A stretch of 64,000 nt of DNA from an uncultured Chloroflexia bacterium (GCA_963712745.1 CAVQJC010000017.1:160001-224000), one strand, 5' to 3'. Shown: positions 443 through 16,020, counted from the stretch's first letter. Notes: generated by a model not told the origin, from the letters alone. Made by a program: numbers and translations.

Positions 443-556
443 CCTAGCCGCGGCTGCATGAGGCCCATCCATGAGGATGGGCCTCCCCTCGCACATGGGG
501 GCGCGCGAGCGCCCCCGCCGGGCTCAGTCTTCGAGGCCGGAGGCTCAGCGGCGATG

Positions 557-601
557 CCATGGCTGCGACGACCAGACATCGCCCTCAATGCGTGGCGGTT
601 C
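557..601 (+). repeat. Degenerate copy of cassette-boundary site R
   Basis: ccatggctgcgacgaccagacatcgccctcaatgcgtggcggttc aligns without gaps to the R consensus ccatggcggcgacgaccagacataacccgctattcatggcgattc. Confidence 0.7.
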
Positions 602-603
602 GG

Positions 604-765
604 CTACTCCTCCTCGAACAGGAACACGATCGTCTCGGCGATGGTCAGCCAGTCATCGGCGGGCGGGCCGCCTGTCGTGCTGCACCAGAGCCACGTCGAT
701 GACAGCACAGACGAAGTCGCCGTCGTACAGGTAGATCAGGGCGTCCGAAGTCGGCCCGCAGAGGG
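604..765 (-). pseudogene. 3' remnant of a family-A (PsbP-like) cassette gene
   Basis: Minus strand reads ..WLWCSTTGGPPADDWLTIAETIVFLFEEE*, matching the family C-terminus C..P.DDWLSIAETFEFLPAE. No start codon or N-terminus. Confidence 0.65.
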
Positions 766-770
766 TCTGG

Positions 771-1763: not shown

Positions 1764-1937
1764 TGGCTGATCTCCGAAGTCGGTTGGATGACGGAGTGGC
1801 AATCATCGGGCAGCGACGGCCAGCGGGCAAGTCGCCGGGATAGGCTCGGAGTCCCCCGACCCGATGCCTCCTCGGTCTTCACCCTCCTCTCACGACCCAG
1901 CGGGTCGAGTGCCCCGCACATCGCCGGGACCCGCCCC

Positions 1938-3617
1938 CTACGCCCTGGCCAGCTTCTTGTAGCGGATGCGGTGCGGCTGGTCGGCCGCTGTCCCCAACTC
2001 CTTGCGCCGGAAGGCCTCGTAGTCGCTCACGTTCCCCTCGAAGAAGCGCACTTGGGAATCGCCCTCGAAGGCGAGGATGTGGGTCGCGATCCGGTCGAGG
2101 AACCAGCGGTCGTGGGAGATGACCACGACGCAGCCCGGGAACGACTCCAGGCCGGCCTCGAGCGCTCGCAGCGTGTCCACGTCGAGGTCGTTGGTCGGTT
2201 CGTCGAGCAGCAGCACGTTGCCACCCGTCTGCAGCAGCTTGGCGAGGTGCACCCGGTTCCGCTCGCCACCCGACAGTTGGCCGACGAGCTTCTGCTGGTC
2301 GGTGCCACGGAAGTTGAACGATGAGACATAGGCGCGGGCCGGGACCTCGCGTGCCCCGGTCTTGATGAACTCGGCACCCTGGGTGATCTCCCCGAATACC
2401 GTCTTGTCGGCGGCCAGGTCGTCGCGCTCCTGGTCGACATAGCTCAGCGCGACGGTGTCACCGATCGCGATCGACCCGGCGTCGGGTGCCTCCTGCCCGA
2501 CGAGCATCCGGAACAGCGTCGTCTTGCCGGCGCCGTTGGGTCCGATGATCCCGACGATGCCGGCCCGCGGCAGCGAGAACGTCAGGTCCTCGATGAGCAG
2601 CTTCTCGCGGTAGCCCTTGCGCAGGCCGGCGACATCGATGACCTTGTCACCGAGCCGCGGCCCCGGGGGGATGGCGATCTCGAGCTCGCGGGCGCTGGCC
2701 TTGTCGTCGTTCGCCTCGGCCAGGAGTCGCTCGTAGGCTGACAGTCGAGCCTTGCCCTTGGCCTGACGCGCCTTCGCACCCATGCGCACCCATTCGAGCT
2801 CGCGCGCGAGCGTCCGCTGCCGGGCATCGACCTGCTTCTGCTCGGTCGCCAGCCGCGCGAGCTTCTGCTCGAGCCAGCTCGAGTAGTTGCCACTGAACGG
2901 GATGCCGCGGCCCCGGTCGAGCTCAAGGATCCACTTGGCCACGTTGTCGAGGAAGTATCGATCATGGGTGATGGCGACGACGGTACCGGCGTATTCGGAC
3001 AGGAAGCGCTCCAGCCATTCGACCGACTCGGCATCGAGGTGGTTCGTCGGTTCGTCGAGCAGCAGCAGGTCCGGGTGGCGCATGAGCAGTCGTGCGAGCG
3101 CCACGCGGCGCTTCTCGCCGCCGGAGAGCGTCCTGACGTCGGCGTCGTCGGGCGGGCAACGGAGCGCGTCCATCGCGATGTCGACGTTGCGCTCGAGGTT
3201 CCACGCGTCCGCGGCTTCGATGCGGTCCTCGAGGACCGCCTGCTCGGCGCCGATCGCGTCGTAGTCGGCGTCGGGATCGGACCAGCGGGCCATGACCGCG
3301 TTGTACTGGTCGATGAGCGACTGGACCTCGCGGACGCCGTCGAGCACGTTGCCCTTGACGTCCTTCGCGGAGTCGAGCCCGGGCTCCTGCTCGAGGTATC
3401 CGACGGTGAAGCCCGGGGTCAGCCGAGCCTCGCCGTTGTAGCCGTCGTCGAGCCCGGCCATGATCTTGAGCAGGCTCGACTTGCCGGCGCCGTTGGGCCC
3501 GATGACCCCGATCTTGGCGCCGGGATAGAAGGACAGCGAGATGTCCTCCAGCACGGTCCGGTCGGGCGGATAGTGCCGGGCGAGCTTGTACGCGGTGTAG
3601 ATGAATTCGGCTGGCAT
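1938..3617 (-). CDS. ettA: Energy-dependent translational throttle ABC-F protein
   Basis: 559 aa with two ABC domains. N-terminus DISLSFYPGAKIGVIG and C-terminus QPHRIRYKKL are characteristic. Confidence 0.95.
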   Translation of the reverse strand: MPAEFIYTAYKLARHYPPDRTVLEDISLSFYPGAKIGVIGPNGAGKSSLLKIMAGLDDGYNGEARLTPGFTVGYLEQEPGLDSAKDVKGNVLDGVREVQSLIDQYNAVMARWSDPDADYDAIGAEQAVLEDRIEAADAWNLERNVDIAMDALRCPPDDADVRTLSGGEKRRVALARLLMRHPDLLLLDEPTNHLDAESVEWLERFLSEYAGTVVAITHDRYFLDNVAKWILELDRGRGIPFSGNYSSWLEQKLARLATEQKQVDARQRTLARELEWVRMGAKARQAKGKARLSAYERLLAEANDDKASARELEIAIPPGPRLGDKVIDVAGLRKGYREKLLIEDLTFSLPRAGIVGIIGPNGAGKTTLFRMLVGQEAPDAGSIAIGDTVALSYVDQERDDLAADKTVFGEITQGAEFIKTGAREVPARAYVSSFNFRGTDQQKLVGQLSGGERNRVHLAKLLQTGGNVLLLDEPTNDLDVDTLRALEAGLESFPGCVVVISHDRWFLDRIATHILAFEGDSQVRFFEGNVSDYEAFRRKELGTAADQPHRIRYKKLARA

Positions 3618-3699
3618 GAGGCTAGGGTAGCGACCCTCCGCGGGGCAGCGCCTCGGGCTCGGTCGACACGGACCGTGCGCGTCCTCAGCCCGCCTGGCT

Positions 3700-3801
3700 C
3701 ATCCTCCGCGCCCCGGCCATCGGGTCAAGCGCCGGACGGACCTGGGTCCCGCCTGGCCATGGCGGCGACGACCAGACCAAACCCGCTATTCATTATGTTT
3801 G
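3700..3801 (+). repeat. L + R repeat (R right arm divergent: tcattatgttt)
   Basis: catcctccgcgccccggccatcgggtcaagcgccggacgg ... ccatggcggcgacgaccagaccaaacccgctattcat. Confidence 0.9.
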
Positions 3802-3840
3802 CTGAAGCCAGCCGACCCCTGTGCTAGTCCTCGCTCGCGC

Positions 3841-4500
3841 CTACCCCTCGACGGGCAGGAACTCGAAGGTCTCGGCGATGGAGAGCCAGTCGGGGTTGGG
3901 AGCCTCCTCGCCACCACACGTGATGCCGTAGATCGTCGAGTCGTCCTGCAGCAGGAACTGCGTGCCCGCGAACGGTGTGGGTCAGTCTGGATCGACGAAG
4001 GTGTGATCGATGCGAACCGCCTCGCCCGCTGGAAGCGTCACGACGGTAACCGTCGCGCCGCCAGGGTATCGATCGTCGGCCTGGAGGCGGGCGACGTGCT
4101 CTGCCACCAGTGAGTCGAGTGGGACGATCGCAGCCATGACCTCGACCCCGCAGTAGCCTGGGACTTCCTGGGGGCCCACGTACGGCATCGCCAGGACGGG
4201 TGACTCCTCGCTGACGGCCTCGTAGAGCCAGCTGAGATCAGCGGCATAGGTCGAGTCGGTCACGTTGCTGAGCATCTCGCCTAGCGAGCCGGCATCGAGC
4301 CCAGACCGGCGGACCCAAGCCCAATCATCGGGAAACGCCAGCGCGAAGCCAGCACCGGGCACCTCCACTCGACCACCCAGGCCAACCGGTCCGGGCGACG
4401 GTTCCCGTGCCACCACCCCAGTCCCTAGTACTAGGACCAGCAGCCCTGCCAGCAGTCCGACTCGCTTGCCCACCACGTCCCCCATCCTGCTTGTCGTCAC
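3841..4500 (-). pseudogene. Family-A secreted PsbP-like protein interrupted by an in-frame TGA at 3982-3984
   Basis: Frame continues past the TGA as PTPFAGTQFLLQDDSTIYGITCGGEEAPNPDWLSIAETFEFLPVEG*. Signal peptide and GFALAFPDDW motif present. Confidence 0.8.
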
Positions 4501-4548
4501 ATCCTCTGCACCCCGCTCAGCGGGTCAAGGGCCGGACGGCCCGGCGGC
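4500..4548 (+). repeat. L repeat only (minus-strand promoter)
   Basis: catcctctgcaccccgctcagcgggtcaagggccggacggcccggcggc. Confidence 0.9.
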
Positions 4549-4568
4549 GTGACGGAGCTGGAGCGCGA

Positions 4569-4866
4569 TCAGTCCGGATCGAACGAAGCGGCGAGCGTCT
4601 GGAGCGCGGTTACCGCATCAGGGGCGTTGGAGGCCCGCCGATCACCGGACGGCCCCGAGGCCACGGCCTGCCACTCGCCGGATGGACGATCTCCCGAGCC
4701 ATCGGACGAGACGTAGTGCACGCCGGAACAGCACCCACCCATCAGGCAGCCGGTCCTCTGTTGCCAGCCAGGCGCTCGTCAGCCGATCGGGAACGGTCCC
4801 GTCTCGTCGGACCGTGGTCTGGCCGAACGCCGTCGCGACCGTCGCCAACTTCGCCCATACCATCAC
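4569..4866 (-). pseudogene. Small hypothetical cassette gene with a 1-nt frameshift near 4726
   Basis: MVWAKLATV..AWLATEDRLPDGWVL joins in another frame to SGVHYVSSDG..GEWQAVASGPSG..ALQTLAASFDPD*. Lies downstream of an L promoter. Confidence 0.5.
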
Positions 4867-4908
4867 GTCACCCCTGCCCGAGCGACCGGCACTCCCGGTC
4901 AGTACTCC

Positions 4909-5010
4909 CATAGTCCGCGCCTCGGTCAGCGGGTCAAGGGCCGGACGGCCCGGCGGCATGCGTGGCCATGGCGGCGACGACGAGACCAAACCCGCTATAC
5001 ATGGCGATTC
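4909..5010 (+). repeat. L + R repeat
   Basis: ..tcagcgggtcaagggccggacggcccggcggc..ccatggcggcgacgacgagaccaaacccgctatacatggcgattc. Confidence 0.92.
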
Positions 5011-5058
5011 CGTGCGGCCCACTGGAGCTTCGTGGACGCCCGCGAGAGAATCGTCGTA

Positions 5059-5131
5059 GCGGGAGGCAATGACGCGCGGCCCCAGCCCTGGCCGCCTGGA
5101 CCGTGCCGAGTCACTGGCGGACCCGACCCGC
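5059..5131 (+). ncRNA. c-di-GMP-II-like riboswitch aptamer (copy 1)
   Basis: GCGGG-AGGCAATGA-CGCGCGG..TGGCCGCCTG-GACCGTGCC-GAG-TCACTGGCGG-ACCCGA-CCCGC follows the class II layout (GGAAACAAUGA..UGGGCACUUG..GAGUUAGUAGUGCAACCGACC). Pairings GCGGG/CCCGC, CCGCC/GGCGG and GCGCGG/CCGTGC. Lies just 5' of the GAGGGGG RBS. Confidence 0.72.
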
Positions 5132-5149
5132 GCTTGTGAGGGGGATGTC

Positions 5150-6031
5150 ATGCGTACGTTGCGGCTGTCCCTGGTCGGGACGGTCATCGTGATGCTGCTC
5201 GGCGGGCTGGGCAGCACGGTGCTCGCGCACGATGAGATGCCTGGCGTCGGCGTCGAGGTCTTGGGCGACCTCGGCGCCATCCCAGGCGAGGCCATCCCCG
5301 AGGACGCCGTCCGTGTCGCGTTCGCTCGGACTAGCATCGAGCCGGGCGTGACCGGCGAGGTCGGCTCGGCCCAGCCCCATGAATGGGCCAGCCTGGAATG
5401 CGTCCAGCACGGTTCGCTCACGTTCACGGACAGCGACCGGACAGTGATCTGGCGGGTGGGCGAAACGACCGAGGACCTCCCCGCTGGGACGACCGCCAGC
5501 GTGAACACCGGGGATCTCGTGCTCTTCTATGACGGCGGGGCCGGGAGGAGTTTCGCGAACGCGGGGCCCGAGACGTACGTGACGTACTCCGTGGCGGTCG
5601 GCGACAGTGATGACCCGGCGGAGCCACCGGTCCTGCCCCCCGGCGTCTCCTGGCGGCTCCTCGTCTTCGACGTGCTGGCACCCGAGACCGTGGATCTCTG
5701 GTTCACGACACCGGTCGCGGTGGCGTTCGAGCGACTCGCGTTCTACCCCGGCGGCCAGCTCGTGCTTGGGTCTGACGAGGCCGGGTTGCTGCGCCTCCTG
5801 GCGCTCGAAGAAGGTCGCCTGGAGAGCGGCTTCGCGGCCCCATCCGAGGTCGCCGGGGCGCTGACCGACTCGGTCAGGTTCATCGCGCCCGACGCCGACA
5901 TTCTCACGTCGGGATCATTCGCGGACGACACGGTCTACGTGATCCGAAACGAGTCGGACGAGCCTGCGATTGTCCTGAGCGCCACGCTGACGCATGTTGA
6001 TGGGACCACGGAGGCCAAGCCCGCCGAGTAA
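5150..6031 (+). CDS. Secreted tandem cupin-like protein (cassette)
   Basis: ATG after GAGGGGG, signal peptide MRTLRLSLVGTVIVMLLGGL, two degenerate cupin repeats (V.HGSLT..GD..FAN.G and LEEGRLE..IRNESDEPA). Ends in PAE*. Confidence 0.7.
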   Translation: MRTLRLSLVGTVIVMLLGGLGSTVLAHDEMPGVGVEVLGDLGAIPGEAIPEDAVRVAFARTSIEPGVTGEVGSAQPHEWASLECVQHGSLTFTDSDRTVIWRVGETTEDLPAGTTASVNTGDLVLFYDGGAGRSFANAGPETYVTYSVAVGDSDDPAEPPVLPPGVSWRLLVFDVLAPETVDLWFTTPVAVAFERLAFYPGGQLVLGSDEAGLLRLLALEEGRLESGFAAPSEVAGALTDSVRFIAPDADILTSGSFADDTVYVIRNESDEPAIVLSATLTHVDGTTEAKPAE

Positions 6032-6034
6032 CCC

Positions 6035-6106
6035 CATCGCGCCGCCTCGGCTGCCTGCCGCCCTGCCCCATCCTCCGCGCCCCGCTCAGCCGGTCAAGGG
6101 CCGGAC
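6035..6106 (+). repeat. L' tail followed directly by an orphan L repeat
   Basis: catcgcgccgcctcggctgcctgc (6035-6058), then catcctccgcgccccgctcagccggtcaagggccggac (6069-6106). Confidence 0.85.
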
Positions 6107-6201
6107 TGACTGGTGGCATGGGTGGCGGCAGGCTACCCGGCATCACGTGGTCCCTTCGGCACTGTCGGTCCGAGTGGACACCTCGGTATCGTCGAGCCGC
6201 C

Positions 6202-6516
6202 ATGGCGGACCCGCTGGAGCCTGACACGCGGCCGGACGAGCCGCACATCACAAACCCATCGATGCGCGAGGCGGAAGAGCCGGACCTAGCGCGCGTGGCC
6301 GAGGAGTGGAGGCGAGAGACACGCCAAGCGAAGGACCAGCGGAACGCCGAAACCGAGGAGTGGCTGAAGGCGTTCGAGGCCAAGCATGAGAACCCGAGGG
6401 ACACCTTCCTCGGGCTGCTACTGCATGGTTGCTGTTGGTGGTCCCTCATGAGAATGGCGTGCGCCACCCTGCTGGTCGTGTTCGTCGCAGCTTGGGCCCG
6501 GCGTGCGAGGGGGTAG
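6202..6516 (+). CDS. Hypothetical protein with C-terminal membrane anchor (cassette)
   Basis: ATG 9 nt after TATCGT. Acidic helical N-terminus and hydrophobic C-terminus, followed by L'+R. Confidence 0.55.
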   Translation: MADPLEPDTRPDEPHITNPSMREAEEPDLARVAEEWRRETRQAKDQRNAETEEWLKAFEAKHENPRDTFLGLLLHGCCWWSLMRMACATLLVVFVAAWARRARG

Positions 6517-6521
6517 CACCT

Positions 6522-6591
6522 CATCGCGCCGCCTCGGCTACCTGCGCCATGGCGGCGATGACCAGACATAACCCGCTATTCATGGCGATTC
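6522..6591 (+). repeat. L' + R repeat
   Basis: catcgcgccgcctcggctacctgcg-ccatggcggcgatgaccagacataacccgctattcatggcgattc. Confidence 0.92.
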
Positions 6592-6609
6592 TGGAGTAGT
6601 GGTCAGTGG

Positions 6610-7791
6610 CTAGCCCGCCTCGGCGGGCAGGAACTCGAACGAGTCGGCGATGGAGAGCCAGCGGTCGTCGAAGCCGTGGTAGCCAAAGCAGCCAATCAGA
6701 GCTTCGGGGCCGTCGGTAGCGAGAGCGGTCTCGAAATCGATCAAGAACGTCGAGTTGTACGTCGCCCTGCCGGTGTCCGCTCGGGTGACGTAGTCGATGC
6801 GGTGAGACGGGCCGGCCGGCAGCATCAGCTCCGACACGGTCGGCCCCTCGGCCAGCCCAGGGTCGCCTCTCGCGTGATCGAGTGCGCCGGCGAGGACGTC
6901 ATCGAGCGAGCTGCCGACGGGCAGATCCGTGGATTGGACCAGGCACGTCGTGGCCGGCCACCCATCGGGCTCGACCGGTCCGAACACCAGGGCGTGGAAC
7001 GCGTACCCCTGGTCCGACAGCGCGCTCAGTTGCTCCAGCATCGTCGCGGTCGTATCGACCCAGCGCGGATGTGTCTGACGGACGAGGTCAAGGTTCTCCT
7101 CCGCGCTTGCCTCGTTCGGGTCAAGGATGACCCAGTCGTCCGGAAAGGTCAGTGCAAATCCTGGAGCGATAGCCTCCAGGCGACCGCCCATGCCGGCCGT
7201 GTCGCGGGGGCGGAGCCACTCGAGTGACTCGGCGATAGCGCGCCACCTATCCGGGGTCGGATGCGGACCTTCACACGTGAGGATGACGCTCCAGGCATCA
7301 CCGCCGATCATGAAGCCCTCGCGGTAGAGCGCCACCTCGTCCGTGTCTGGCGGCACGACCTGCCATCGATAAGTGACGGCGGGGCCGGCCGGGAGCTCGG
7401 TCTGCGAAATGCCCTCGTACGCATGGACACTGGGCTCTGCCCTGATGGCCGCATCCAGCCCTCCGTAGAACCCCGGGTCGAGGACCTCTTCTCCGTCCCA
7501 CGGGACCACGTCCAGATCGCAAGCGTCGCCCGATGGCGACATCAGGAAGAGTTCTGACTCAGTCTCCTCATCGAGCAGGCCGACCTGCGCGCCGGCGGCC
7601 TGCAACTGGGCGTCGAGTTCCACGGTGAGGTCGAAGGCGATCCAATCGGTCGGGATCGATACGGCGATGCCGTGCCTGGGCATCTCCACGCGCCCACCGA
7701 ACCACGGTGGAGGCTGCGACTCTGACGCCACCACCCCAGACCCCAACGACAGAACCATCAGTAGCGCCAGCAACCCGACTCGCCTGCCCAT
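6610..7791 (-). CDS. Family-A secreted protein with two PsbP-like domains (cassette)
   Basis: Signal peptide, then twice GGR(V/L)E..G(I/F)A..P.DW..C..LPAGP..C..DRW.(A/S)IA.S.E.L. Confidence 0.8.
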   Translation of the reverse strand: MGRRVGLLALLMVLSLGSGVVASESQPPPWFGGRVEMPRHGIAVSIPTDWIAFDLTVELDAQLQAAGAQVGLLDEETESELFLMSPSGDACDLDVVPWDGEEVLDPGFYGGLDAAIRAEPSVHAYEGISQTELPAGPAVTYRWQVVPPDTDEVALYREGFMIGGDAWSVILTCEGPHPTPDRWRAIAESLEWLRPRDTAGMGGRLEAIAPGFALTFPDDWVILDPNEASAEENLDLVRQTHPRWVDTTATMLEQLSALSDQGYAFHALVFGPVEPDGWPATTCLVQSTDLPVGSSLDDVLAGALDHARGDPGLAEGPTVSELMLPAGPSHRIDYVTRADTGRATYNSTFLIDFETALATDGPEALIGCFGYHGFDDRWLSIADSFEFLPAEAG

Positions 7792-7799
7792 AACGTCTC

Positions 7800-7892
7800 C
7801 ATCCTCCGCGCCCCGCGCCGCGGGTCAAGGGCCGGACGGCCCGACGGCCATGGCGGCGACGACCAGACCAAACCCGCTATTCATGGCGATTT
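7800..7892 (+). repeat. L + R repeat
   Basis: catcctccgcgccccgcgccgcgggtcaagggccggacggcccgacgg-ccatggcggcgacgaccagaccaaacccgctattcatggcgattt. Confidence 0.92.
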
Positions 7893-7960
7893 CGGAGTCG
7901 CGTTCGCGCCAGCGTGCTGACTGCGTTGGTGACCCCTCACGCTTGGCCTGATGCCCGCGC

Positions 7961-8350
7961 TCAGCGGTAGCCGAGGACGAGCGTTAAGAACAACAACAGG
8001 ATGACGAAGAAGCTCACGGCGGCGAGGACGAAGCTCACGAGACCGACGATCAACCACGCCCCGAGGCCATGGAGCCCCATTCGACGACCGGTCCCGAGGA
8101 TCACCAGCGGGACCAGGATCAGCCCAAGTAGCCCCAACCCGAGCCCGAGGTCGATACCTGCCGCTGAGTCCACCACGGCACCGACTCCGGAGAGCAGGAA
8201 CCAGGCGCCGATGAGCGTAGCCGTGGCCAGGACAGTGGTCGCCGATGCTGCCTTGGAGCGGTCCCGGAGCGCGTTGTACAGCCCCTCGCCCACCCAGCCG
8301 TACAGCCTCAAGTCATCACTCACGGCACCGCTCCCCGCGATGGTCTGCAT
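7961..8350 (-). CDS. Small multi-pass membrane protein (cassette)
   Basis: Three hydrophobic segments, downstream of an L promoter. Start may be 8350 or 8323. Confidence 0.6.
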   Translation of the reverse strand: MQTIAGSGAVSDDLRLYGWVGEGLYNALRDRSKAASATTVLATATLIGAWFLLSGVGAVVDSAAGIDLGLGLGLLGLILVPLVILGTGRRMGLHGLGAWLIVGLVSFVLAAVSFFVILLLFLTLVLGYR

Positions 8351-8380
8351 CGCGATCAGGTTTGTGCCCGACCATCCGCC

Positions 8381-8474
8381 CATCCTCCGCGCACCGGCCA
8401 GTGGGTCAAGGGCCGGACGGCATGCATCGCCATGGCGGCGACGATCAGACATAATCAGCTGTACATGGCGATTC
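8381..8474 (+). repeat. L + R repeat (spacer variant tcagctgt)
   Basis: catcctccgcgcaccggccagtgggtcaagggccggacgg..ccatggcggcgacgatcagacataatcagctgtacatggcgattc. Confidence 0.9.
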
Positions 8475-8523
8475 TCGATTGGCGCTCGAGAGCCGATGGA
8501 CGCCCGCGAGAGAATCGCAGGTA

Positions 8524-8593
8524 GCGGGAGGCGATGAGACGCGGCCGAGCAATGTCCGCCTGGACCGCCCGAGCCACTGGCCAACCCGGCCCG
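8524..8593 (+). ncRNA. c-di-GMP-II-like riboswitch aptamer (copy 2, diverged)
   Basis: gcgggaggcgatgagacgcggcc..tgtccgcctggaccgcccgagccactggccaacccggcccg, homologous to 5059-5131. Confidence 0.6.
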
Positions 8594-8613
8594 AGGATGA
8601 GAGGGGGGACTTC

Positions 8614-9150
8614 ATGCGCACGTTGCGGCCGTCACTGGCGGCGATCATCATCTTGGTGCTGGCCATGACATCGGGCAGCGCGGTCTTGGCCCAGTCGGAC
8701 GACGCGCCTGCCGCCTGGGTCGAAGCGACGAGCATCGCGCATCCCTGCGTCGGACTCGGGGAACCCGAGGAGTACATCGAGGAGACGCACGTGACCCGTC
8801 TCCGAGGCTCGGCTCTCGACTGCAGCATGGACCTTGGCGACGCCCGCCTGAAGGGCACTGCGGATATGAGCTGGAACTACGACTGCTACGACGCGGTCGG
8901 GGCCGGCTGCGTGCGTTGGGGCTCCGTGGTGCTGACTGGGCCCGATGGCACATGGGAGGGTACGTTCAGCGGCGTAGAGAGCCCCGCAGGGTCCGGTGCT
9001 TCCTTCTCTGCTGAGTACATCGAGCTCGCGGGCAGGGGTGCCTACGATGGGCTTGCGTACGTGGGTCAGGCAGCCAACCAGTTCAGCACTTCTGGACGGT
9101 GGTTCGGCATCGTGTACGAAGGCGAGTTGCCGTCTCCGTCCGCCGAGTAG
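8614..9150 (+). CDS. Family-B secreted beta-rich protein (cassette)
   Basis: Signal peptide MRTLRPSL.. and motif C..DARLKG..N.DC..C..WG..GPDGTWEG..L.G.GAYDGL. Ends in SAE*. Confidence 0.75.
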   Translation: MRTLRPSLAAIIILVLAMTSGSAVLAQSDDAPAAWVEATSIAHPCVGLGEPEEYIEETHVTRLRGSALDCSMDLGDARLKGTADMSWNYDCYDAVGAGCVRWGSVVLTGPDGTWEGTFSGVESPAGSGASFSAEYIELAGRGAYDGLAYVGQAANQFSTSGRWFGIVYEGELPSPSAE

Positions 9151-9153
9151 TCG

Positions 9154-9244
9154 CATCGCGTCGCCTCGGCTGCTTGCGGCTCAGGATCGGCGTGCATAGC
9201 CACGGCGGCGACGACCAGACCAAACCCGCTATACATGGCGATTC
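9154..9244 (+). repeat. L' + R repeat
   Basis: catcgcgtcgcctcggctgcttgcg..ccacggcggcgacgaccagaccaaacccgctatacatggcgattc. Confidence 0.9.
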
Positions 9245-9260
9245 CTGTTAGCGAGTCGGG

Positions 9261-10394
9261 TCAGGTCGGCAGTTCGGCCAGCACGTCCTCGATGGCCATC
9301 CCACCGCTGCCACTGACGATGAACAGGACACCGCGAACGGTATACATGAACGACCACGTCGAACCGTCATCCGCCTCCTCCGCGTCATCCGTCCAGACGG
9401 TACGTTCACCGTAGGTCCGAGTCGGCCACTCCGAGAGCGGCGGGGTCACAGAGGTGCCCATCTCGCTGCGCATGATCTGTACCAGTTGCTCCATCACGAC
9501 TACGGGCGGGACTCCAGCAACTCGGATGGCCTCAACGACGTACTGCTCCGGCACCGACCGGTCAGCCGTACGCGCATGTGCCACCTGCAGGTCCCTGAAC
9601 TCCTGTCCGAGGTCGGAGATCAAGCGTCGGAACAACCGGCGAGCGTCTTCCTCGGTCAGCACCAGAGACGAGCTGCTCTCGACGGACAGCGGAGTATCGC
9701 CGATCACGTGCGGCAGCAGGGAGATCACCTGGTCGGACGGGAGCGGCAGGGTCTCGACGGTCTCGGCGATGGAGAGCCAGTCGTCGTCGGGGCGTTGGAA
9801 AGCTGAGCACGTCATCGTCAAGATGTCGCCGCCGACGTCGATCAGATACATCGTGACGGGGCCCCAGACGTCACGGTCGTAGGCATTCTGGGCGGTCGCT
9901 CGAAGTACCAGACCGGGACCGGTCGGCACGTCCACCGGCATCGGCGGGTCGGCATCCACCATCGACTCCGCGTCCACCATCGTCTGGTACAGACCTTCGG
10001 CGAAGGCATCGAGCCGCCAGCCTTCCCCGAGCCTTGGATAGAACAAGCAGCTCTCCGTCTCCGCGAGGGAGCACACTGAGGACGAGAGGTCCATACCCAA
10101 TAGCGGGAAGGATCCCTCAGCGGCCAAGAGCGAGAGGTTCATGTGCAGGCACGAGAGCCCAGCTGCAGTCAGTCCACCATCAGGCGAGTCCATGGCGCGG
10201 ACCTGTGAGTCGATGTCGGCGCCAGGGTCGAACGCCACCCAGCCCTCGGGGAGGGTGACCGCGAAGCCGTACTCAGCGATCTCCACGCGCCCGCCCATCC
10301 ACGGCGGAGGCGAGGCATCCTCCGCCCGCGCGGACCCGAATACAGTCGCCAGCAGACTGACCACAAGCAGCGCCACGCTCGCCAGCTGTCGCAT
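9261..10394 (-). CDS. Secreted fusion of a family-A PsbP-like domain and a family-C domain (cassette)
   Basis: GGRVEI..GFAVTLPEGW..DDDWLSIAETVE, then a domain ending IEDVLAELPT that resembles 11958-12557. Confidence 0.8.
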   Translation of the reverse strand: MRQLASVALLVVSLLATVFGSARAEDASPPPWMGGRVEIAEYGFAVTLPEGWVAFDPGADIDSQVRAMDSPDGGLTAAGLSCLHMNLSLLAAEGSFPLLGMDLSSSVCSLAETESCLFYPRLGEGWRLDAFAEGLYQTMVDAESMVDADPPMPVDVPTGPGLVLRATAQNAYDRDVWGPVTMYLIDVGGDILTMTCSAFQRPDDDWLSIAETVETLPLPSDQVISLLPHVIGDTPLSVESSSSLVLTEEDARRLFRRLISDLGQEFRDLQVAHARTADRSVPEQYVVEAIRVAGVPPVVVMEQLVQIMRSEMGTSVTPPLSEWPTRTYGERTVWTDDAEEADDGSTWSFMYTVRGVLFIVSGSGGMAIEDVLAELPT

Positions 10395-10417
10395 TCTCGT
10401 ACCTGTGCGGATGCCCT

Positions 10418-10510
10418 CATCCTCCGCGCCCCGCTCAGCGGGTCAAGGGCCGGACGGCCCGGCGTCCATGGCGGCGACGACCAGACATAACCCGCTATAC
10501 ATGGCGATTC
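10418..10510 (+). repeat. L + R repeat
   Basis: catcctccgcgccccgctcagcgggtcaagggccggacggcccggcgt-ccatggcggcgacgaccagacataacccgctatacatggcgattc. Confidence 0.93.
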
Positions 10511-10530
10511 GTACCGTCCGCTCGGCCGAG

Positions 10531-11136
10531 CTACGCTCCGGCGGGCAGGAACTCGAAGGTCGCGGCGATGGACAGCCAGTCATCCTCGGGTGCTCCTCGC
10601 GAACAGCCGAGGAAGTACCACCGGTGTCCATCACCGAAGAGGTACATAGCGTATCGGTCAGCGGTCTCCAGCGACGCCCAGTCGGGGTACCCGCCGGGCT
10701 CGCCCCAGAAGTTCGCGTCTGAGGGCACCAGGTCCATGGTGACCCGTCCGACGCGTCCAGCCGGCAGGTCGATGACCGCGCCGGTGACGTTCCTGGCGGC
10801 GAGACTGTCGTCCCATCGCGAGACCAACGCATCGAGCCAGTCGTCAATCGACTCGACCGGCAGGACCGGCTCAACGACGGACGAGTCAAAGACCTCACAG
10901 TAGCCACCCGGCCCCGAGGAGGTCAGGCCCGGCAAGTACGGGGGGTGATCCAGCATCCCAATGACCTCCCACCCGTCGGGGAAGGCGATGGCGATTCCCA
11001 GATCCGGGAAGGTCCGGATGGTGGCGGCAGGCTGCCCCGTCACCTCCGGGCTCGCCGACGGTGACTGCGCCGTGATGGCGCTCGACGTCGTGGCTAGGAG
11101 ACACGCCACCGCAACCGAGATGATGAGCCGTCGCAT
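10531..11136 (-). CDS. Family-A secreted single PsbP-like domain protein (cassette)
   Basis: Signal peptide and GIAIAFPDGW..C..LPAGR..C..EDDWLSIAATFEFLPAGA*. Confidence 0.8.
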   Translation of the reverse strand: MRRLIISVAVACLLATTSSAITAQSPSASPEVTGQPAATIRTFPDLGIAIAFPDGWEVIGMLDHPPYLPGLTSSGPGGYCEVFDSSVVEPVLPVESIDDWLDALVSRWDDSLAARNVTGAVIDLPAGRVGRVTMDLVPSDANFWGEPGGYPDWASLETADRYAMYLFGDGHRWYFLGCSRGAPEDDWLSIAATFEFLPAGA

Positions 11137-11161
11137 GATCGACTCCCGTGCGCGATGCCCC

Positions 11162-11266
11162 CATCCTCTCCGCCCCGCTCAGTGGGTCAAGGGCCGGACG
11201 GCCCGGCGGCGTGCCATCGCCATGTACGGGCGATGACCAGACCAAACCCGCTATTCATGGCGATTC
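11162..11266 (+). repeat. L + R repeat
   Basis: catcctctccgccccgctcagtgggtcaagggccggacggcccggcggc..gaccagaccaaacccgctattcatggcgattc. Confidence 0.92.
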
Positions 11267-11377
11267 TCGCTTGGGGCGGAGTTCGCAGCAACGGCTCGTG
11301 GGACGCCTGCGCCTCGAGAATCGTCTACCTGGTACAGGCGGGATCGACTCGTCAGCGTGAGAATCGAGGGAGAGACC

Positions 11378-11899
11378 ATGGGAACGATCAGGATCGGCAT
11401 CATCACGCTCCTCACCATCGGCCAGCTGGCGGGCTCAGCGGTCAGTGTCGCAGCGCAGGACGATGAAGCCGTCGTCGTGAGCGGGGGCATGAGTCCGATT
11501 GGCGGCGCGAGCGTGCCGTGCGAGCTGGAGGAGGATTTCACCGAACTCGACGACGGCACGGCCAGCTGGACCTGGTGCTTCGGTCTCGTGATGGACGATC
11601 CACGGCTCACCGGCGACGGCTCCGTCGTCATGGCTGAGCGGGCGTACGACGGCTTCGGCCTGATCTCCTCGAGGGTGGAGATAGCCAACGAAGGAGGGTC
11701 GTGGTCGGGCAACGGCACCAGGGTCTTCATCGACGGAGATCCGGGGATCGATATCGAGCAACTCGTACTCACCGGGGCCGGTGGATATGGCGGCCTGACG
11801 GCCATCCTCTATGCCGATCCGGAGTTCGGCTTCCGCGGATTGGACTCGTGGAACGGCGTCATCATCTCGGGCGAGATGCCAGGACTACCTGCCGAGTAG
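11378..11899 (+). CDS. Family-B secreted beta-rich protein (cassette)
   Basis: ATG after GAGGGAG, signal peptide, DDPRLTG..GGSWSG..VLTGAGGYGGLTAI. Ends in LPAE*. Confidence 0.75.
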   Translation: MGTIRIGIITLLTIGQLAGSAVSVAAQDDEAVVVSGGMSPIGGASVPCELEEDFTELDDGTASWTWCFGLVMDDPRLTGDGSVVMAERAYDGFGLISSRVEIANEGGSWSGNGTRVFIDGDPGIDIEQLVLTGAGGYGGLTAILYADPEFGFRGLDSWNGVIISGEMPGLPAE

Positions 11900-11957
11900 A
11901 CCCCTCGCGCCACCTCCGCCTCGGCGGGCAGGAACTCGAAGGTCTCGGCGATGGAGG

Positions 11958-12557
11958 CTATGGCAGTTCGGCCAGCACGTCCTCGATGGTCGGTTCGGTC
12001 GGTGCGTCGGGGTCAGAGCCAACGCGACCAAGCCGCACTCTGAACAGGACCTCGCCCTTCGGGTAGAGGTACTCGATGAAGCGGTCGTCGGCGCCATCGA
12101 AGGTAACGACCACGACGCGGCGGTCACCGATGTCCTGCCAGTCCATAGCGGCCACTGGCAGTTGGTCGGCGACAGCTTGGGACTCGCGTCGCAACCCCTC
12201 GAACACGCCTGCCCAGAAGTCTGCCGCCTGAGCACCCACGATGCGTGTCGCCTCGATACTCAGGAACCGGTCTCCTTCCGGGTGAACTCCATAGCCGCCT
12301 GCGGCTCTGACATCCTCCGGCTCCAGTCCGAGTGGCACCAAGACATCACGCCAGCCTGCGGTCCACTCCGCATCGGCGGAAGAGACAGCCGAGAAGTCCA
12401 GGATGGACAGGTCGATGTCCCCGACCTGTGACGGGATGATGGACGCCAAGTCATCGGGTGCGAACGGCGGCGTGGCCTCCGCTGACGGCGACTGAGCCAA
12501 CGCCCCAGACCCCAGCGACAGAACCATCAGCCCTGCCAATAGCCCGGCTCGCTTCAC
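11958..12557 (-). CDS. Family-C secreted protein (cassette)
   Basis: GTG after AGGAGG. Signal peptide KRAGLLAGLMVLSLGSGALA resembles that of 7791. Ends in IEDVLAELP*. Confidence 0.75.
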   Translation of the reverse strand: MKRAGLLAGLMVLSLGSGALAQSPSAEATPPFAPDDLASIIPSQVGDIDLSILDFSAVSSADAEWTAGWRDVLVPLGLEPEDVRAAGGYGVHPEGDRFLSIEATRIVGAQAADFWAGVFEGLRRESQAVADQLPVAAMDWQDIGDRRVVVVTFDGADDRFIEYLYPKGEVLFRVRLGRVGSDPDAPTEPTIEDVLAELP

Positions 12558-12584
12558 GGCTCCACCCCTCCTGCGGATGCCGCT

Positions 12585-12686
12585 CATCCTCCGCGCCCCG
12601 AGCCCCGGGTCAAGGGCCGGACGGCCCGGCGGCACGCTCAGCCCTGGCGGCGACGACCAGACATAACCCGGTATTCATGGCGATTC
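12585..12686 (+). repeat. L + R repeat
   Basis: catcctccgcgccccgagccccgggtcaagggccggacggcccggcggc..ccctggcggcgacgaccagacataacccggtattcatggcgattc. Confidence 0.92.
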
Positions 12687-12734
12687 CGTGCGGCCCACTG
12701 GAGCCTCGTGGACGCCCGCGAGAGAATCGTCGTA

Positions 12735-12807
12735 GCGGGAGGCAAAGACGCGCGGCCCCAGCCCTGGCCGCCTGGACCGTGCCGAGTCACTGGCGGACCC
12801 GACCCGC
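12735..12807 (+). ncRNA. c-di-GMP-II-like riboswitch aptamer (copy 3)
   Basis: Identical to 5059-5131 except caaTga becomes caaAga. Confidence 0.68.
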
Positions 12808-12825
12808 GCTTGTGAGGGGGATGTC

Positions 12826-13359
12826 ATGCGTACGTTGCGGCTGTCCCTGGTCGGGACGGTCATCGTGATGCTGCTCGGCGGGCTGGCTGGAGCGGTGCTT
12901 GGCGCAGGACGAGGAGGAAGCGCCCGTATGGGTGACCCTCCTCGCGCAGGAGAACTGCCGGATGGAGGCGGACCCCGGCACCTACGAGCCAGGCGCAGGA
13001 CGCGCCAAGAAGATCCGCGACCTGCCCCTCGCTTGCGACCTCACCTACAGCGATGCCCGCCTTAGCGGGCCGAGCCACATGCTCTACAACGAGGACTGCT
13101 TCGAGTCGGGCATCTGCGTCGGGTGGGGGACCATCGGATCGACGGCTCCGACGGATCGTGGACCGGGTGGTGGCACGAGATCGACGACGAGGACGACGAT
13201 ACGAGCTTCCACATCGTGCTGACCGGCGACGGCGGTTACGAGGGACTCACCGCCATCATCTACTCACTCGGGGTCTGGGAAACGTTCCCCGACGAGTACG
13301 GTGTCATCTACCGGGGCGATCCGCCGCCAGGTCCCGAGGTGCTGTTGACTGCTGAGTAG
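12826..13359 (+). pseudogene. Family-B secreted protein with two compensating frameshifts (about 12899 and 13134)
   Basis: Three ORF pieces join as MRTLRLSL..AVL / AQDEEEAPVW..DARLSG..NEDC..CVGWGT / RIDGSDGSWTG..LTGDGGYEGLTA..LTAE*. Confidence 0.75.
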
Positions 13360-13587
13360 CAGATCACCAGGCGACCGCGCCACGCTCACCGCCGCGAGCG
13401 AGATCCATACAGGGATAGACACCGATACGACGGTCATCTACCCCTGCTCGAGCTGAGCCGCACCGACATCGACCCCACGGCGCCCTGAGAACAGCACCGC
13501 CACCCTGGAGCAGCACTTCCCGCTGCCGCGTTCATGACCTCCGCCTCTTGAACCGAGCGGTACTGCTGTGGCCTCATACCCATCTGA

Positions 13588-13661
13588 GCGGGAGGCGATG
13601 AGGCACGGCCCACACCCTGGCCGCTGGGACCGCGTCCGAGCCACTGGCGAAACCGGCCCGC
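13588..13661 (+). ncRNA. c-di-GMP-II-like riboswitch aptamer (copy 4)
   Basis: gcgggaggcgatgaggcacggcc..tggccgctgggaccgcgtccgagccactggcgaaaccggcccgc retains the canonical AACCG junction. Confidence 0.68.
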
Positions 13662-13679
13662 GCAGCAAAGGGGGATGTC

Positions 13680-14579
13680 ATGCGGACGTTGCGACTGTCC
13701 CTGTCGGTGACGGTCATCTTGGCACTGCTGAGCGGACTGGGCAGTGCGGTCGTGGCTCAGTCGGAGGAGCCGAACCAACAGAGCGCGTGGCCGAGCCTCA
13801 CGACGTCCCTCGAGTACGGCGAAGACCCAAAGCAGGTTATCCATGCCTACGAGCCAGAGCCTCGGACCGCGCCACGGCCCGCCGTCGTCTTCTTCTCCGG
13901 CGGCGGATACGACATCGGGGATCCGCTGTGGGTCCTCGACTCTGCACGCCAGATGGCCGAGGCTGGCTACGTGGCCTTTGCGGCGGGCTACCGCCTCCAC
14001 GATCCGTCGACGGGCACGAACCCATGGCCGGCACAACTCGAGGATGCCCAGGCAGCGGTCCGCTGGATCCGCGCTCACGCGGCGGACTACGGCGTCGACC
14101 CCGACCGGATCTGCGCCCTCGGCCATTCCTCCGGTGGCCACCTCGCGTCGCTGGTCGGCATGACCGATGCCCGCGACACGAGTGACCCTGACATGGCGGG
14201 CATCTCGAGCCGCGTCACCTGCGTCGTCAGCGTCTCGGGCGACGTCGACCTCACGATCGGCAACCCGTACCCGGAGCAGACGGCGGTCTACGAGAGCCTG
14301 CTGGGCGCCAGCTACGAGGATGACCCCGCCGCGTGGCGTGCGGTCTCGCCCGCCTACCTCGTCGATGCGGAGACCGTGCCCATCCTCATCATCCACGGCA
14401 CCCGCGACACCAACGTCGACGTTCAGGCGTCCCGGAACCTGGCGGCAGCCCTCGCCGAGGTCGACCGGGAGTTCGTCTACGCCGAGATAGACGCCGACCA
14501 CTTCGACATCTTCGAGCAGCCCCCGACCCTGCCGCTCACCGAGACGTTCCTCGTCTACCAACTCCATCCAGAGGAGTGA
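13680..14579 (+). CDS. Secreted alpha/beta hydrolase (HSL/BD-FAE-like esterase) (cassette)
   Basis: Oxyanion motif FSGGG, nucleophile elbow GHSSGG, IHGTRD and ADH. Carries the shared MRTLRLSL signal peptide. Confidence 0.88.
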   Translation: MRTLRLSLSVTVILALLSGLGSAVVAQSEEPNQQSAWPSLTTSLEYGEDPKQVIHAYEPEPRTAPRPAVVFFSGGGYDIGDPLWVLDSARQMAEAGYVAFAAGYRLHDPSTGTNPWPAQLEDAQAAVRWIRAHAADYGVDPDRICALGHSSGGHLASLVGMTDARDTSDPDMAGISSRVTCVVSVSGDVDLTIGNPYPEQTAVYESLLGASYEDDPAAWRAVSPAYLVDAETVPILIIHGTRDTNVDVQASRNLAAALAEVDREFVYAEIDADHFDIFEQPPTLPLTETFLVYQLHPEE

Positions 14580-14739
14580 TGACCGACCGGTCGATGGCGG
14601 CTCGATGGACGGCGAACCCAGAGCGAGTTGAAGAGATACGCGGCGCCAGCGCAAGCGCACCCGGCTGGAGCGTGGGCCGAGACCAAGGAGTAGGCGAGAG
14701 CTAGGAGTCGGCGACCAGCCGTGCCCACCGGCTGATTCG

Positions 14740-14830
14740 CTCGCGCCGCCTCGGCTGCCTGCGCCATGGCGACGACGACCAGACGTCGTACGCGTGGCGA
14801 CCAGACCAAGCCCGCTATACATGGCGATAC
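14740..14830 (+). repeat. L' + composite R (short variant followed by full core)
   Basis: tcgcgccgcctcggctgcctgcg-ccatggcgacgacgaccagac-gtcgtacgcgtggcg-accagaccaagcccgctatacatggcgatac. Confidence 0.88.
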
Positions 14831-14865
14831 GCCGGGTCGGCAGGTCAAGCGCGATACGGCCGCGC

Positions 14866-15840
14866 CTACTCCTCGGCGGGTCGGAACTCGAACGTCTCGG
14901 CGATGGACTGCCAACGATCCTGAGGGGCTGCAACCCCGAAGCAAGTAAGGGAGTAGTAGGACGTCCCGTCGGTCACGAGGTAGGCGCTCCTCTCGAGGTT
15001 CGCGCCCTCATCCACGTCATCGATGCGGACAGCCGAACCGCTGGGCAACTCGATGGCGGTCGTGGCTAGCGTCGCAGGCGCCGACCGGAACATGGCGATG
15101 AACGCCTCCACGAAGCCCTCGAGGTCGCTCCACGCCACGTCGGCGTGGCGTCCGTGGGGCCAGTACCAAGCACGGCAGGTGTCCTCGCCCGGCATGAACG
15201 CCAGCATCACCATCTGGCCCGTGGTGGTCGGCCTGTCTTCCCGCGTGAATACGACTGACCAGTCCTCGGGGAGGGTGAGCGCGAAGCCCGCTTCGGGCAC
15301 CCAGCCTCGCAAGCGACGTTCCAGGTTCGTCGGCTGGTCCTGCCGAAGCGGGTCGATAGCGATCGAGTTCGCGATAGACAGCCAGCGATCGGTCGGCGGG
15401 TCGGTGCTGGTGCAGGTCAGCACGCGATAGGACGAGCCGACCTCCCAGTAGTAGCTCGTCACCAGGTACACACCATCGGGCCCATAGTCCTGCCACGCCT
15501 CGGTGCGAAGGGCCGCTCCCTGCGGGGTCGCGACTGTCACGGCGGAGGCGGCGGCAGGACCGCCTCCTTGCTCGACCAACGCGGCCAGGCAAAGGGTCTC
15601 ATCGGTGTCGTACAGCGTGAGCAATGGCGTCACATCGCCTCGCGTGGTCAACTCGTACGGATCGCCGGGCGTGGCCTCCCAGAGGTGCGGCGGGACGACC
15701 CAGAGCCCGGAGCCCAGGCTCTCGACACGACCTGCGGACCAGAACGTCGCTTCGGTCGTTGGTGTCGGCGACTGCGCGGCCACACCATTCGCAACCATCG
15801 CGAGGGTCAGCCCGGCCAGCATTCCAGATCGTCTGCGCAT
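14866..15840 (-). CDS. Family-A secreted protein with two PsbP-like domains (cassette)
   Basis: Signal peptide MRRRSGMLAGL.., then ..LTCTSTDPPTDRWLSIANSI.. and GFALTLPEDW..LTC..QDRWQSIAETFEFRPAEE*. Confidence 0.8.
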   Translation of the reverse strand: MRRRSGMLAGLTLAMVANGVAAQSPTPTTEATFWSAGRVESLGSGLWVVPPHLWEATPGDPYELTTRGDVTPLLTLYDTDETLCLAALVEQGGGPAAASAVTVATPQGAALRTEAWQDYGPDGVYLVTSYYWEVGSSYRVLTCTSTDPPTDRWLSIANSIAIDPLRQDQPTNLERRLRGWVPEAGFALTLPEDWSVVFTREDRPTTTGQMVMLAFMPGEDTCRAWYWPHGRHADVAWSDLEGFVEAFIAMFRSAPATLATTAIELPSGSAVRIDDVDEGANLERSAYLVTDGTSYYSLTCFGVAAPQDRWQSIAETFEFRPAEE

Positions 15841-15849
15841 CACTTGCCC

Positions 15850-15943
15850 CATCCTCGCCTGCCGGCTCAGTCGGTCAAGGGCCGGACAGCCCGGCGGCAT
15901 GCATCGCCATGGTGCCGACGACCAGACGGCGTACGCCTGGCGA
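15850..15943 (+). repeat. L + terminal short-variant R (right end of array)
   Basis: catcctcgcctgccggctcagtcggtcaagggccggacagcccggcggc..ccatggtgccgacgaccagac-ggcgtacgcc-tggcga. Confidence 0.85.
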
Positions 15944-16020
15944 GTGGAGGAGCTCGAGACGCGAAGACGCGGCACCCCTCCACGGAATGCCGCGCCGTCG
16001 TCCGCGAGTGACTGCCGGAA

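Follow-up and report, generated by a model that had tools for sequence, protein, structure and literature searches.

How two unrelated genes, lying 7.7 kb apart, came to carry an almost identical front end is the question raised by a 64,000 nucleotide stretch of DNA (GCA_963712745.1 CAVQJC010000017.1:160001-224000, referred to here as the window) from an uncultured Chloroflexia bacterium. The source genome is a metagenome bin that is 84.6% complete with 5% contamination, and its 20 contigs are named C1 to C20. The window is held by contig C17; positions without a contig label are window positions, and features are on the strand presented unless marked (-). The term leader is used for the promoter part, the aptamer, the ribosome site, and the start of the signal peptide, with copy A being the tract before gene A and copy B the tract before gene B. 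An initial annotation, made from the sequence alone, described a 200 bp expression and export module at 5011-5210 and 12687-12886, fused to unrelated mature proteins, and proposed that a recent recombination or gene conversion event had swapped cargo behind it.

Pairwise alignment of 4911-5400 with 12587-13076 reproduced the near-identity of the two modules, with its 2 differences, and extended it to a maximal tract of 5000-5210 (copy A) and 12676-12886 (copy B) in which 209 of 211 positions are identical. The only differences are at 5029 (T/C) and 5070 (T/A), the longest exact run is 140 nt (5071-5210), and the first mismatches outside the tract are at 4999 and 5211. A repeat search of the window also lists the same pair. 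Both copies directly follow a repeat, here called R, as had been described: R is at 4907-5011 before copy A (left half 4907-4953, right half 4954-5011) and at 12583-12687 before copy B, identified by repeat search and by nhmmer profiles made from the window copies. Upstream of the tract, in the R repeat at 4907-4999, the two places are approximately 85% identical. Downstream, identity falls from 82% to 62% and then to 33-45% in a 40 nt sliding window. The point at which it ends is inside the signal peptide, after codon 20 of MRTLRLSLVGTVIVMLLGGL, counting from the ATGs at 5150 and 12826.

A survey of 165 pairs of leaders of at least 140 nt within the source genome found identities of 70-91%, two whole-gene duplicates excepted (C20_4101/C2_108374 at 100% and an esterase pair at 95%). 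Copies A and B are the sole pair at 95% identity or above in which the cargoes do not match. Since the other leader pairs do not exceed this range, the 140 nt exact run is neither chance nor ordinary conservation. Purifying selection alone might be thought to keep leaders identical, the aptamer core and the first signal peptide codons being conserved in all copies. However, the other functional copies have diverged as stated, and the tract includes a non-conserved spacer (5012-5045) that is 41-48% identical to the paralogue of cargo A described below. This contradicts selection acting alone, which is an extremely improbable explanation.

The nearest relative of cargo A is a paralogue, A', at C7:73202-74048 (87% identity over 848 bp). 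That of cargo B is B', at C4:294996-295520 (87.5% over 527 bp). Each has its own leader of the same family. Gene B also has orthologues in two related genomes, G051 and G053, and these, like A' and B', all have the aptamer and an MRTLRLS signal peptide. In a four-way alignment, A and B are 96-100% identical only over approximately 5011-5210; outside this, each follows its own paralogue. The leader of gene A is itself only 78-85% identical to the leader of A'. By segment, the 41 nt promoter part of copies A and B is 68-71% identical to A', 61-63% to B', and 51-54% to G053; the aptamer and ribosome site are 78-79%, 83-84%, and 84-85% identical, respectively; and signal peptide codons 1-20 are 85% identical to A', which also lacks 9 nt here, 97% to B', and 90% to G053. 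The relationships of module and cargo are thus discordant, with gene A nearest to A' in its cargo and nearest to B' in codons 1-20.

An internal near-identical tract, diverged homologous flanks, and nearest relatives that conflict between tract and flanks are the features of ectopic gene conversion, as in concerted evolution. The 211 bp duplicate is therefore read as a short, recent gene conversion tract between paralogous leaders, members of a large family, with a probability of about 0.78. It differs from other such tracts in that the homologous part is only a non-coding leader and 20 codons, and the genes behind it are unrelated. Because each end of the tract is embedded in older homology, that of the R repeat on one side and of the signal peptide on the other, homologous, non-reciprocal exchange is favoured over insertion of a block. 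Because both cargo lineages already had leaders of the same family, this would be conversion between existing leaders and not a first fusion. Gene A was probably the recipient, since the signal peptide part belongs to the B lineage; this direction of copying is moderately supported. The recent recombination proposed by the initial annotation is therefore borne out. Nothing shows its swap of cargo behind the module, both lineages having already had homologous riboswitch and signal peptide leaders.

The components of the leader can be recognized in both copies. The aptamer belongs to the c-di-GMP-II-GCG variant family (Rfam RF03170; c-di-GMP, cyclic diguanylate). In copy A it is at 5053-5137 (58.2 bits, E 5.1e-8, model positions 1-85 of 85) and in copy B at 12729-12813 (57.0 bits, E 1e-7), where it has an A in place of the U of the model consensus gauGA. 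Both match the covariance model over its full length and exceed its gathering score of 47.9 bits. Each copy has a GGGGG ribosome site; in copy A this is within GAGGGGGA (5138-5145, from reading of the sequence), which is directly after the 3' strand of P1 and 4 nt before the ATG at 5150. The same arrangement of aptamer, ribosome site, and ATG is common to most of the copies in the genome. As in the c-di-GMP-II class, the match is full length and the position is in the 5' leader directly before the ribosome site. Hairpin loop GGCCGCC and downstream UGGCGG, as read from the Rfam alignment, are complementary and would be candidate partners for the pseudoknot that the class requires. The copies differ from the class in that their outer P1 pairs are non-canonical and the would-be start of these pairs is overlapped by a hexamer resembling a -10 element. 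The GCG and GAG variants, reportedly defined by Weinberg in PNAS in 2017, are candidates for altered ligand specificity.

The hexamer is GAGAAT, at 5046-5051, 8 nt upstream of the conserved core GCGGGAGGC. A hexamer of the form NANAAT or T[AG]NNAT is present 7-10 nt before this core in 28 of 44 genome copies (GAGAAT in 18, GATAAT in 4, GACAAT in 3, and TGTCAT in 3), compared with 3 of 132 control windows. This fixed position suggests that GAGAAT is the -10 element of a promoter, with the transcript starting at about the aptamer. A combined sigma-70 and terminator scan of 3600-16000 gave one promoter-like and three terminator-like sites, not above shuffled sequences. The signal peptide of gene A is MRTLRLSLVGTVIVMLLGGLGSTVLA (approximately 5150-5227), the open reading frame (ORF) starting MRTLRLSLVGTVIVMLLGGL-GSTVLA/HDE. 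By inspection, its layout of MRTLR, LSLVGTVIVMLLGGLGSTV, and LA/HDE fits a Sec-type signal peptide (cleaved by signal peptidase I) and has no lipobox cysteine. In AlphaFold2 (AF2) models, the signal peptide of the gene B family is an N-terminal helix and the first 29 residues of cargo A are without secondary structure, with low confidence (pLDDT) in both. Of the module as it had been described, the riboswitch is supported by its Rfam score, the ribosome site and signal peptide are supported by reading of the sequence, and the promoter is putative, depending on the fixed hexamer.

It is proposed that the standard leader would consist of a likely promoter with the fixed -10-like hexamer, then the aptamer, starting at or near the 5' end of the transcript, a G-rich ribosome site directly after the closing helix of the aptamer, and a Sec-type signal peptide. 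The ligand state of the aptamer would control translation initiation of exported proteins, the ligand probably being c-di-GMP or a related dinucleotide. The parts of the leader are conserved at 70-90% DNA identity before unrelated cargoes and would therefore supply the homology at which recombination resolves. In the case of copies A and B, exchange would have begun where the R repeat ends and continued to signal peptide codon 20, overwriting approximately 211 bp of one leader and leaving gene A with a signal peptide of the gene B lineage.

Several results weigh against this account of the tract and of its parts. The promoter part is slightly nearer to A' than to B', so that the direction of copying is not clean, and the tract may be the product of earlier exchanges or have had as donor a third copy that is missing from the incomplete genome. 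Among the records listed for public sequencing runs, considered below, no contig crosses the copy B junction. A plain sigma-70 consensus scan found no promoter at the tract. The junction motif of the aptamer, UGGCG[A/G]ACCCG in 35 of 48 copies, fits the consensus of neither Rfam variant. The minimum free energy fold of leader A is no better than that of shuffled sequences (z +1.5), and over 41 copies the mean unpaired probability of the ribosome site is 0.50-0.53 in all three states modelled. Since folding showed no consistent sequestration of the ribosome site, the switching mechanism is without computational support, and a call of ON or OFF for the riboswitch, tried on this trendless model, was dropped. 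A literature search found no report of the ligand of the GCG and GAG variant families, the accessible portions of PMC5473149, PMC9481103, and PMC12452182 holding nothing on it; the same search found no literature on riboswitches in this lineage.

Instead of conversion, the module could have been inserted, or its cargo swapped, a leader being newly joined by illegitimate or site-specific recombination to a gene that had none. The outcome is indeed chimeric, with a B-type signal peptide on the cargo of gene A. The homologues of cargo A have at least two types of signal peptide (MRTLRxSL... in P0001-P0005 and MRRLWAA..CLALGG.PAAGQES in P0006/P0007), and a nearly identical esterase is behind two promoter classes in C17 and C7; it follows that leaders change partners. 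However, a leader or signal peptide of the same general type was already present in A' and in each of the 8 cargo A homologues found. The tract also ends inside pre-existing homology, as homologous conversion needs, and the identity is not carried into the R repeat or past it, as it would be in a transposed block. Insertion or swapping is considered unlikely.

Shuffling below the level of the gene, as had been suggested, is also seen in three further mosaics. The first involves the esterase gene at 13680-14579 (Pfam BD-FAE, 1.4e-41), which has a diverged leader, as previously noted, with a c-di-GMP-II-GAG aptamer (RF03169) at 13582-13667 (56.1 bits), the cassette as a whole being 13582-14579. 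A second recent tract, 13636-14799, is approximately 99-100% identical to C7:67097-68310; on the left it breaks within the aptamer, and on the right within an R repeat at 14774-14831. Upstream of the left breakpoint, a promoter of the TTGAAC...TCATAC type, like that of a paralogue on C4, precedes the C17 copy, whereas an R repeat and a promoter of the GAGAAT type precede the C7 copy. The esterase protein, identical over 299 aa, thus has two promoter classes and two 5' aptamer halves (13582-14800 compared with C7:67097-68435). The third recent tract is a cassette of the gene B family at 11229-11919, which is 98.4% identical to C7:68454-69143 and has breakpoints in the right half of R (GGCGATGACCAGAC) and in a motif, CCGCCTC, that follows the stop codon. 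In the last of the three mosaics, the cargo A homologue P0004 is 58% identical overall, but at the level of the gene, identity to gene A reaches 90%, and does so only across the final 320 nt. Apart from copies A and B, breakpoints are therefore seen within an aptamer, within the R repeat, and at points between protein domains. Together with the types of signal peptide, these cases indicate that sub-genic exchange is recurrent and that the parts of the leader are frequent breakpoints.

Assembly or polishing could also generate such a tract, by homogenizing two leaders of approximately 85% similarity or by joining leaders to the wrong cargo. The source is a fragmented and incomplete bin, copy B has two single-base homopolymer indels, arrays of R repeats are at contig ends (C7, C4, and C8), and the gene for EttA is split into 2-3 pieces in three related bins, suggestive of indel errors or decay in those bins. 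Against this, the copies still differ from each other at 2 positions and their flanks are distinct, a 1164 bp duplicate of the esterase is without indels, and ettA and its neighbours are intact in the source genome. In addition, separately assembled contigs from public sequencing runs match copy A exactly: a 216 nt contig from run X1 matches 4943-5158 with 0 differences, across the junction of R and leader, and a 402 nt contig from run X2 matches 5140-5480 with 0 differences, across the junction of the tract and cargo A, including the B-type signal peptide joined to this cargo. These contigs are short and of low depth, and the runs possibly include the source sample. What they probe is the assembler and not the biology. 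In each public run, at most 0.20 of the words sampled from 4400-13400 are present. Run X6 shows numerous joints at R repeats; as these may be from other organisms or other arrays, they are not used as evidence. An artefact is regarded as very improbable.

That the tract precedes genes with unrelated products is supported by the cargoes themselves. Gene A (5150-6031) is predicted to encode a 293 aa secreted protein resembling bicupins. It matches no Pfam family at E<=0.01, and only 8 homologues were found among 5.8 billion proteins, of which one has Cupin_2: P0008, 40% identical to cargo A, carries a precomputed PF07883. The AF2 model has a pLDDT of 77, and the Foldseek matches to the Protein Data Bank that were listed are all cupins or bicupins (MncA 2vqa at E 8.5e-8, oxalate decarboxylases, and vicilins), with E values of 8.5e-8 to 6e-6 and low TM scores of 0.25-0.36. 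These models suggest a double beta-barrel, bicupin-like fold. The conserved metal-binding His/Glu motif of cupins is not seen, no His being invariant across the 8 aligned homologues of cargo A, and a comparison of cargo A with the Cupin_2 protein encoded at 771-1763 gave no support (BLASTP E 0.17). Earlier description of this cargo as cupin-like thus holds for the predicted fold and one distant homologue and not as a Pfam match of cargo A itself.

Gene B (12826-13359) belongs to a different family, referred to here as family B, with the conserved motifs SDPRL.G, W.G, and G.G.Y.GL in the family alignment. A second member at 8614-9150 has a diverged leader, as had been seen, that is 77% identical to leader A and contains a weak aptamer match (8518-8600; RF03170, 35.6 bits, below cut-off); leader and ORF together span 8518-9150. 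The AF2 model of this member (pLDDT 78) matches DUF3224 (2q03, E 1.3e-4, TM 0.53/0.70) as well as AbyU-type Diels-Alderase and allene-oxide-cyclase beta-barrels, and the cargo of copy B is accordingly described as a DUF3224/allene-oxide-cyclase-like beta-barrel. With hhalign, cargo families A and B align in the signal peptide alone (39 columns, probability 93.6%) and not at all in the mature parts. A candidate homology between the two (best BLASTP E 0.02 over 36 aa) was not borne out by this profile comparison. The mature proteins are therefore unrelated, as originally stated, with differing predicted folds and no cargo homology seen.

As assembled, gene B is frameshifted, which the earlier description did not record. 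In three-frame translation and alignment with B' and with the intact 243 aa orthologues in G051 and G053, there is a +1 indel, an extra T at 12899-12900, and a -1 indel, a base missing at approximately 13134/13135. Approximately 79 codons are out of frame, and the frame of the signal peptide stops at 13063-13065. Sequencing error is possible, since both indels are changes in homopolymer length. The indel error rate appears to be low, given the esterase duplicate and the intact ettA region, and copy B also departs from the aptamer consensus in its A for U; the balance leans towards a real pseudogene. Within 3 kb of a contig end, at C4:294836-297049, there are three riboswitch leaders in a row, and B' and an esterase paralogue there each have several single-base frame changes. 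A gene for a secreted protein of a further family, family A, at 3840-4500 (-) also appears frameshifted, its C-terminal motif at 3854-3918 being off-frame relative to the ORF at 3982-4500.

The leaders of genes A and B are part of an unusually large riboswitch family. A scan of the source genome identified 48 RF03170 matches at E<=0.01, 32 of which are above the cut-off, and 45 RF03169 matches, 37 of which are above it. Most of the aptamers are followed by a G-rich ribosome site and an ORF within the next 8-20 nt, and 18 of these ORFs encode a stereotyped signal peptide beginning MR[TR].... The cargoes are diverse, including the bicupin-like protein, family B, the esterase, rhodanese, and others. 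An SRPBCC/polyketide-cyclase-like gene at 5-442, which has no signal peptide, has a riboswitch just upstream (C17:159898-159982), and two SRPBCC paralogues elsewhere are likewise preceded by one; the regulon is therefore not limited to exported proteins. The genome also encodes 8 GGDEF domains. Of 24 other genomes of the genus, 15 contain module DNA; of 16 from a sister family, in which genomes are approximately 1.1 Mb, none does. In a sample of the order, 36 of the 58 further genomes that belong to the same family have RF03170 matches, 1-14 each, compared with 0 of 42 in the sister family. With the same filters there are 34 in the source genome, an unusually high number for the c-di-GMP-II class.

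Within this family the aptamer sequence variants include UGGCGAACCCG and UGGCGAAACCG. The string GCGTACGTTG, which holds the palindrome CGTACG, is in the hairpin loop of approximately ten aptamers (e.g. C15:167569, C6:213967, and C20:6424) and recurs at the start codon (ATGCGTACGTTG) of MRT... genes, including those at 5150 and 12826, making a kissing contact between aptamer loop and start codon conceivable. The codons CGT and TTG are atypical for this GC-rich genome and are nevertheless conserved. The pair at C2:108374 and C20:4101, identical at 100% in the leader and 99.7% in the cargo (a 441 aa secreted protein), has one member 4 kb from a contig end and is either a recent duplication or assembly redundancy.

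The R repeat that bounds the tract is approximately 105 nt in length and occurs in three co-oriented arrays at C17:157963-175900, C7:68359 to the contig end, and C10:37577-54812. These span 545-15952 in the window, C7:68359-77026, and C10:37577-54812, and between the repeats are short, mostly unannotated genes on both strands. All 36 copies of the right half of R are in the three arrays, as are 22 of the 28 copies of the left half. A unit of the window array starts with a right half and ends with a left half if its last gene is leftward, or with a CATCGCGCCGCCTCGGC motif if it is rightward. Exact copies of the R core are present at 22 loci, spread over 8 bins that carry the titles uncultured Chloroflexia, Ca. 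Limnocylindrales, or Chloroflexota. The housekeeping gene ettA (ABC-F) at 1938-3617 (-) is inside the window array; it is 93-97% identical in relatives, with both flanks unrelated between species.

Such arrays raise the possibility of an integron-like, site-specific cassette system, in which the R repeats would be recombination sites and the tract a by-product. The confinement of the right halves to co-oriented arrays fits this, as does the content of the EttA-adjacent arrays, which have no cassette in common between the source genome and its relative G014; two further relatives, G013 and G005, have no R near ettA. Among 48 other genomes of the genus, 3 contain cargo A DNA and 5 contain cargo B DNA. 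Two arrays of the source genome share two cassettes at 98-99% identity, in surroundings that differ and with one boundary close to GACCAGAC in R, and there are a common array-end motif and a 22 nt tandem unit bounded by CCAGAC. However, the tyrosine recombinases (four PF00589 matches: two on C4, one on C12, and one at C17:376 kb) are far from all arrays, there are 0 matches to Y1 transposase, and the one serine recombinase found in this 84.6%-complete genome is on C1. No GTTRRRY/RYYYAAC pair of attC geometry was seen in R by inspection, its predicted fold has 0 of 23 pairs covarying, and it has no Rfam match (best E 0.19). The boundaries are imprecise, falling 8 nt left and 16 nt right of GACCAGAC, in mid-aptamer, and in mid-signal-peptide, and the tract of copies A and B begins at the end of R and not at its core. 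A system of this kind is judged improbable.

A wider reading is that the genus has a cassette system that is independent of recombinases or uses an unknown one, with hypervariable arrays bounded by R and standard parts serving as portable homology, the tract being one event caught in the act. These parts would be the R halves, two promoter classes, the variant c-di-GMP-II aptamer, and the stereotyped start of the signal peptide. This is speculative and rather doubtful, although, if true, any accessory gene could be rewired into a secretome controlled by a second messenger, and cassettes could move between arrays. On this reading the riboswitch variant may also sense a ligand other than c-di-GMP. 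R itself is treated as a conserved intergenic boundary element that is also recombination homology, for which termination or insulation, regulator binding, or true recombination are candidate functions. It was rejected as a structured RNA, there being no compensatory pairs and the best Rfam match, AS1726, being at chance level, and as an attC, REP/RAYT, or resolvase site, there being no nearby or matching enzymes. At two array ends the right half of R stops after GACCAGAC, with NNCGTACGCNTGGCGA coming next; the same 16 nt are also inside R at 14774-14831. The loci concerned are 14779-14815, 15917-15940, and approximately C7:67118. A 22 nt unit, CCAGACGTCGTACGCGTGGCGA, is present in three tandem copies at C1:113292-113360. 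This motif is possibly a recombination core or scar.

Gene conversion between leaders, as preferred here, can be compared with two known types of system. In the vsp and vpma genes of Mycoplasma, according to PMC2268961, the 5' untranslated region and the region coding for the signal peptide are highly conserved, and the mature parts are without significant homology. The likeness is in the standard expression and export front end before divergent cargo. Their products are lipoproteins, and a single promoter is moved by the site-specific recombinase Xer1, whereas here each copy has its own leader and -10-like element, there is a riboswitch in the leader and no lipobox cysteine, no recombinase is near the arrays, and the cargoes are of different folds and are not repeat-rich antigens. 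Integron arrays and integrase-less attC clusters are similar in having co-oriented repeats of approximately 105 nt that separate short, mostly unannotated, highly variable genes. They differ in that an adjacent integrase, attC core sites, and covariation supporting a hairpin are all missing here, the genes are on both strands with their own promoters, and a housekeeping gene, ettA, is inside an array.

The tract lies in a riboswitch-rich, cassette-like context, and in it riboswitch and signal peptide act as one recombining unit. Regulatory RNA and export sequences would serve as the homology for exchange of front ends between unrelated genes, a simple route by which new proteins could be placed under one signal and sent out of the cell. 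In the genus concerned, an uncultured one of the Chloroflexota whose relatives are bins bearing the titles Chloroflexia or Ca. Limnocylindrales, the c-di-GMP-II variant regulon is unusually large. Its dozens of natural aptamer variants, together with secreted cargoes that are mostly unannotated, are good material for identification of the ligand and for the study of riboswitch regulon expansion.

Many of the proteins encoded in the arrays, across different families, have the C-termini ...LPAE(E), ...PAE, or ...PTE, with sites of this C-terminal motif at 603-663, 3840-3900, 6612-6672, 9731-9791, 10530-10590, and 14865-14925, all (-). A related DNA motif, CCGCCTCGGC, follows the stop codon of rightward genes at 6014-6058, 9133-9177, and 14718-14762. 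These common protein ends and post-stop motifs could represent a C-terminal tag or a recombination or terminator motif. Elsewhere in the window, at 46186-46352, and unrelated to the tract, is a tandem repeat with alternating 24 and 18 nt spacing in a region that looks to be coding.

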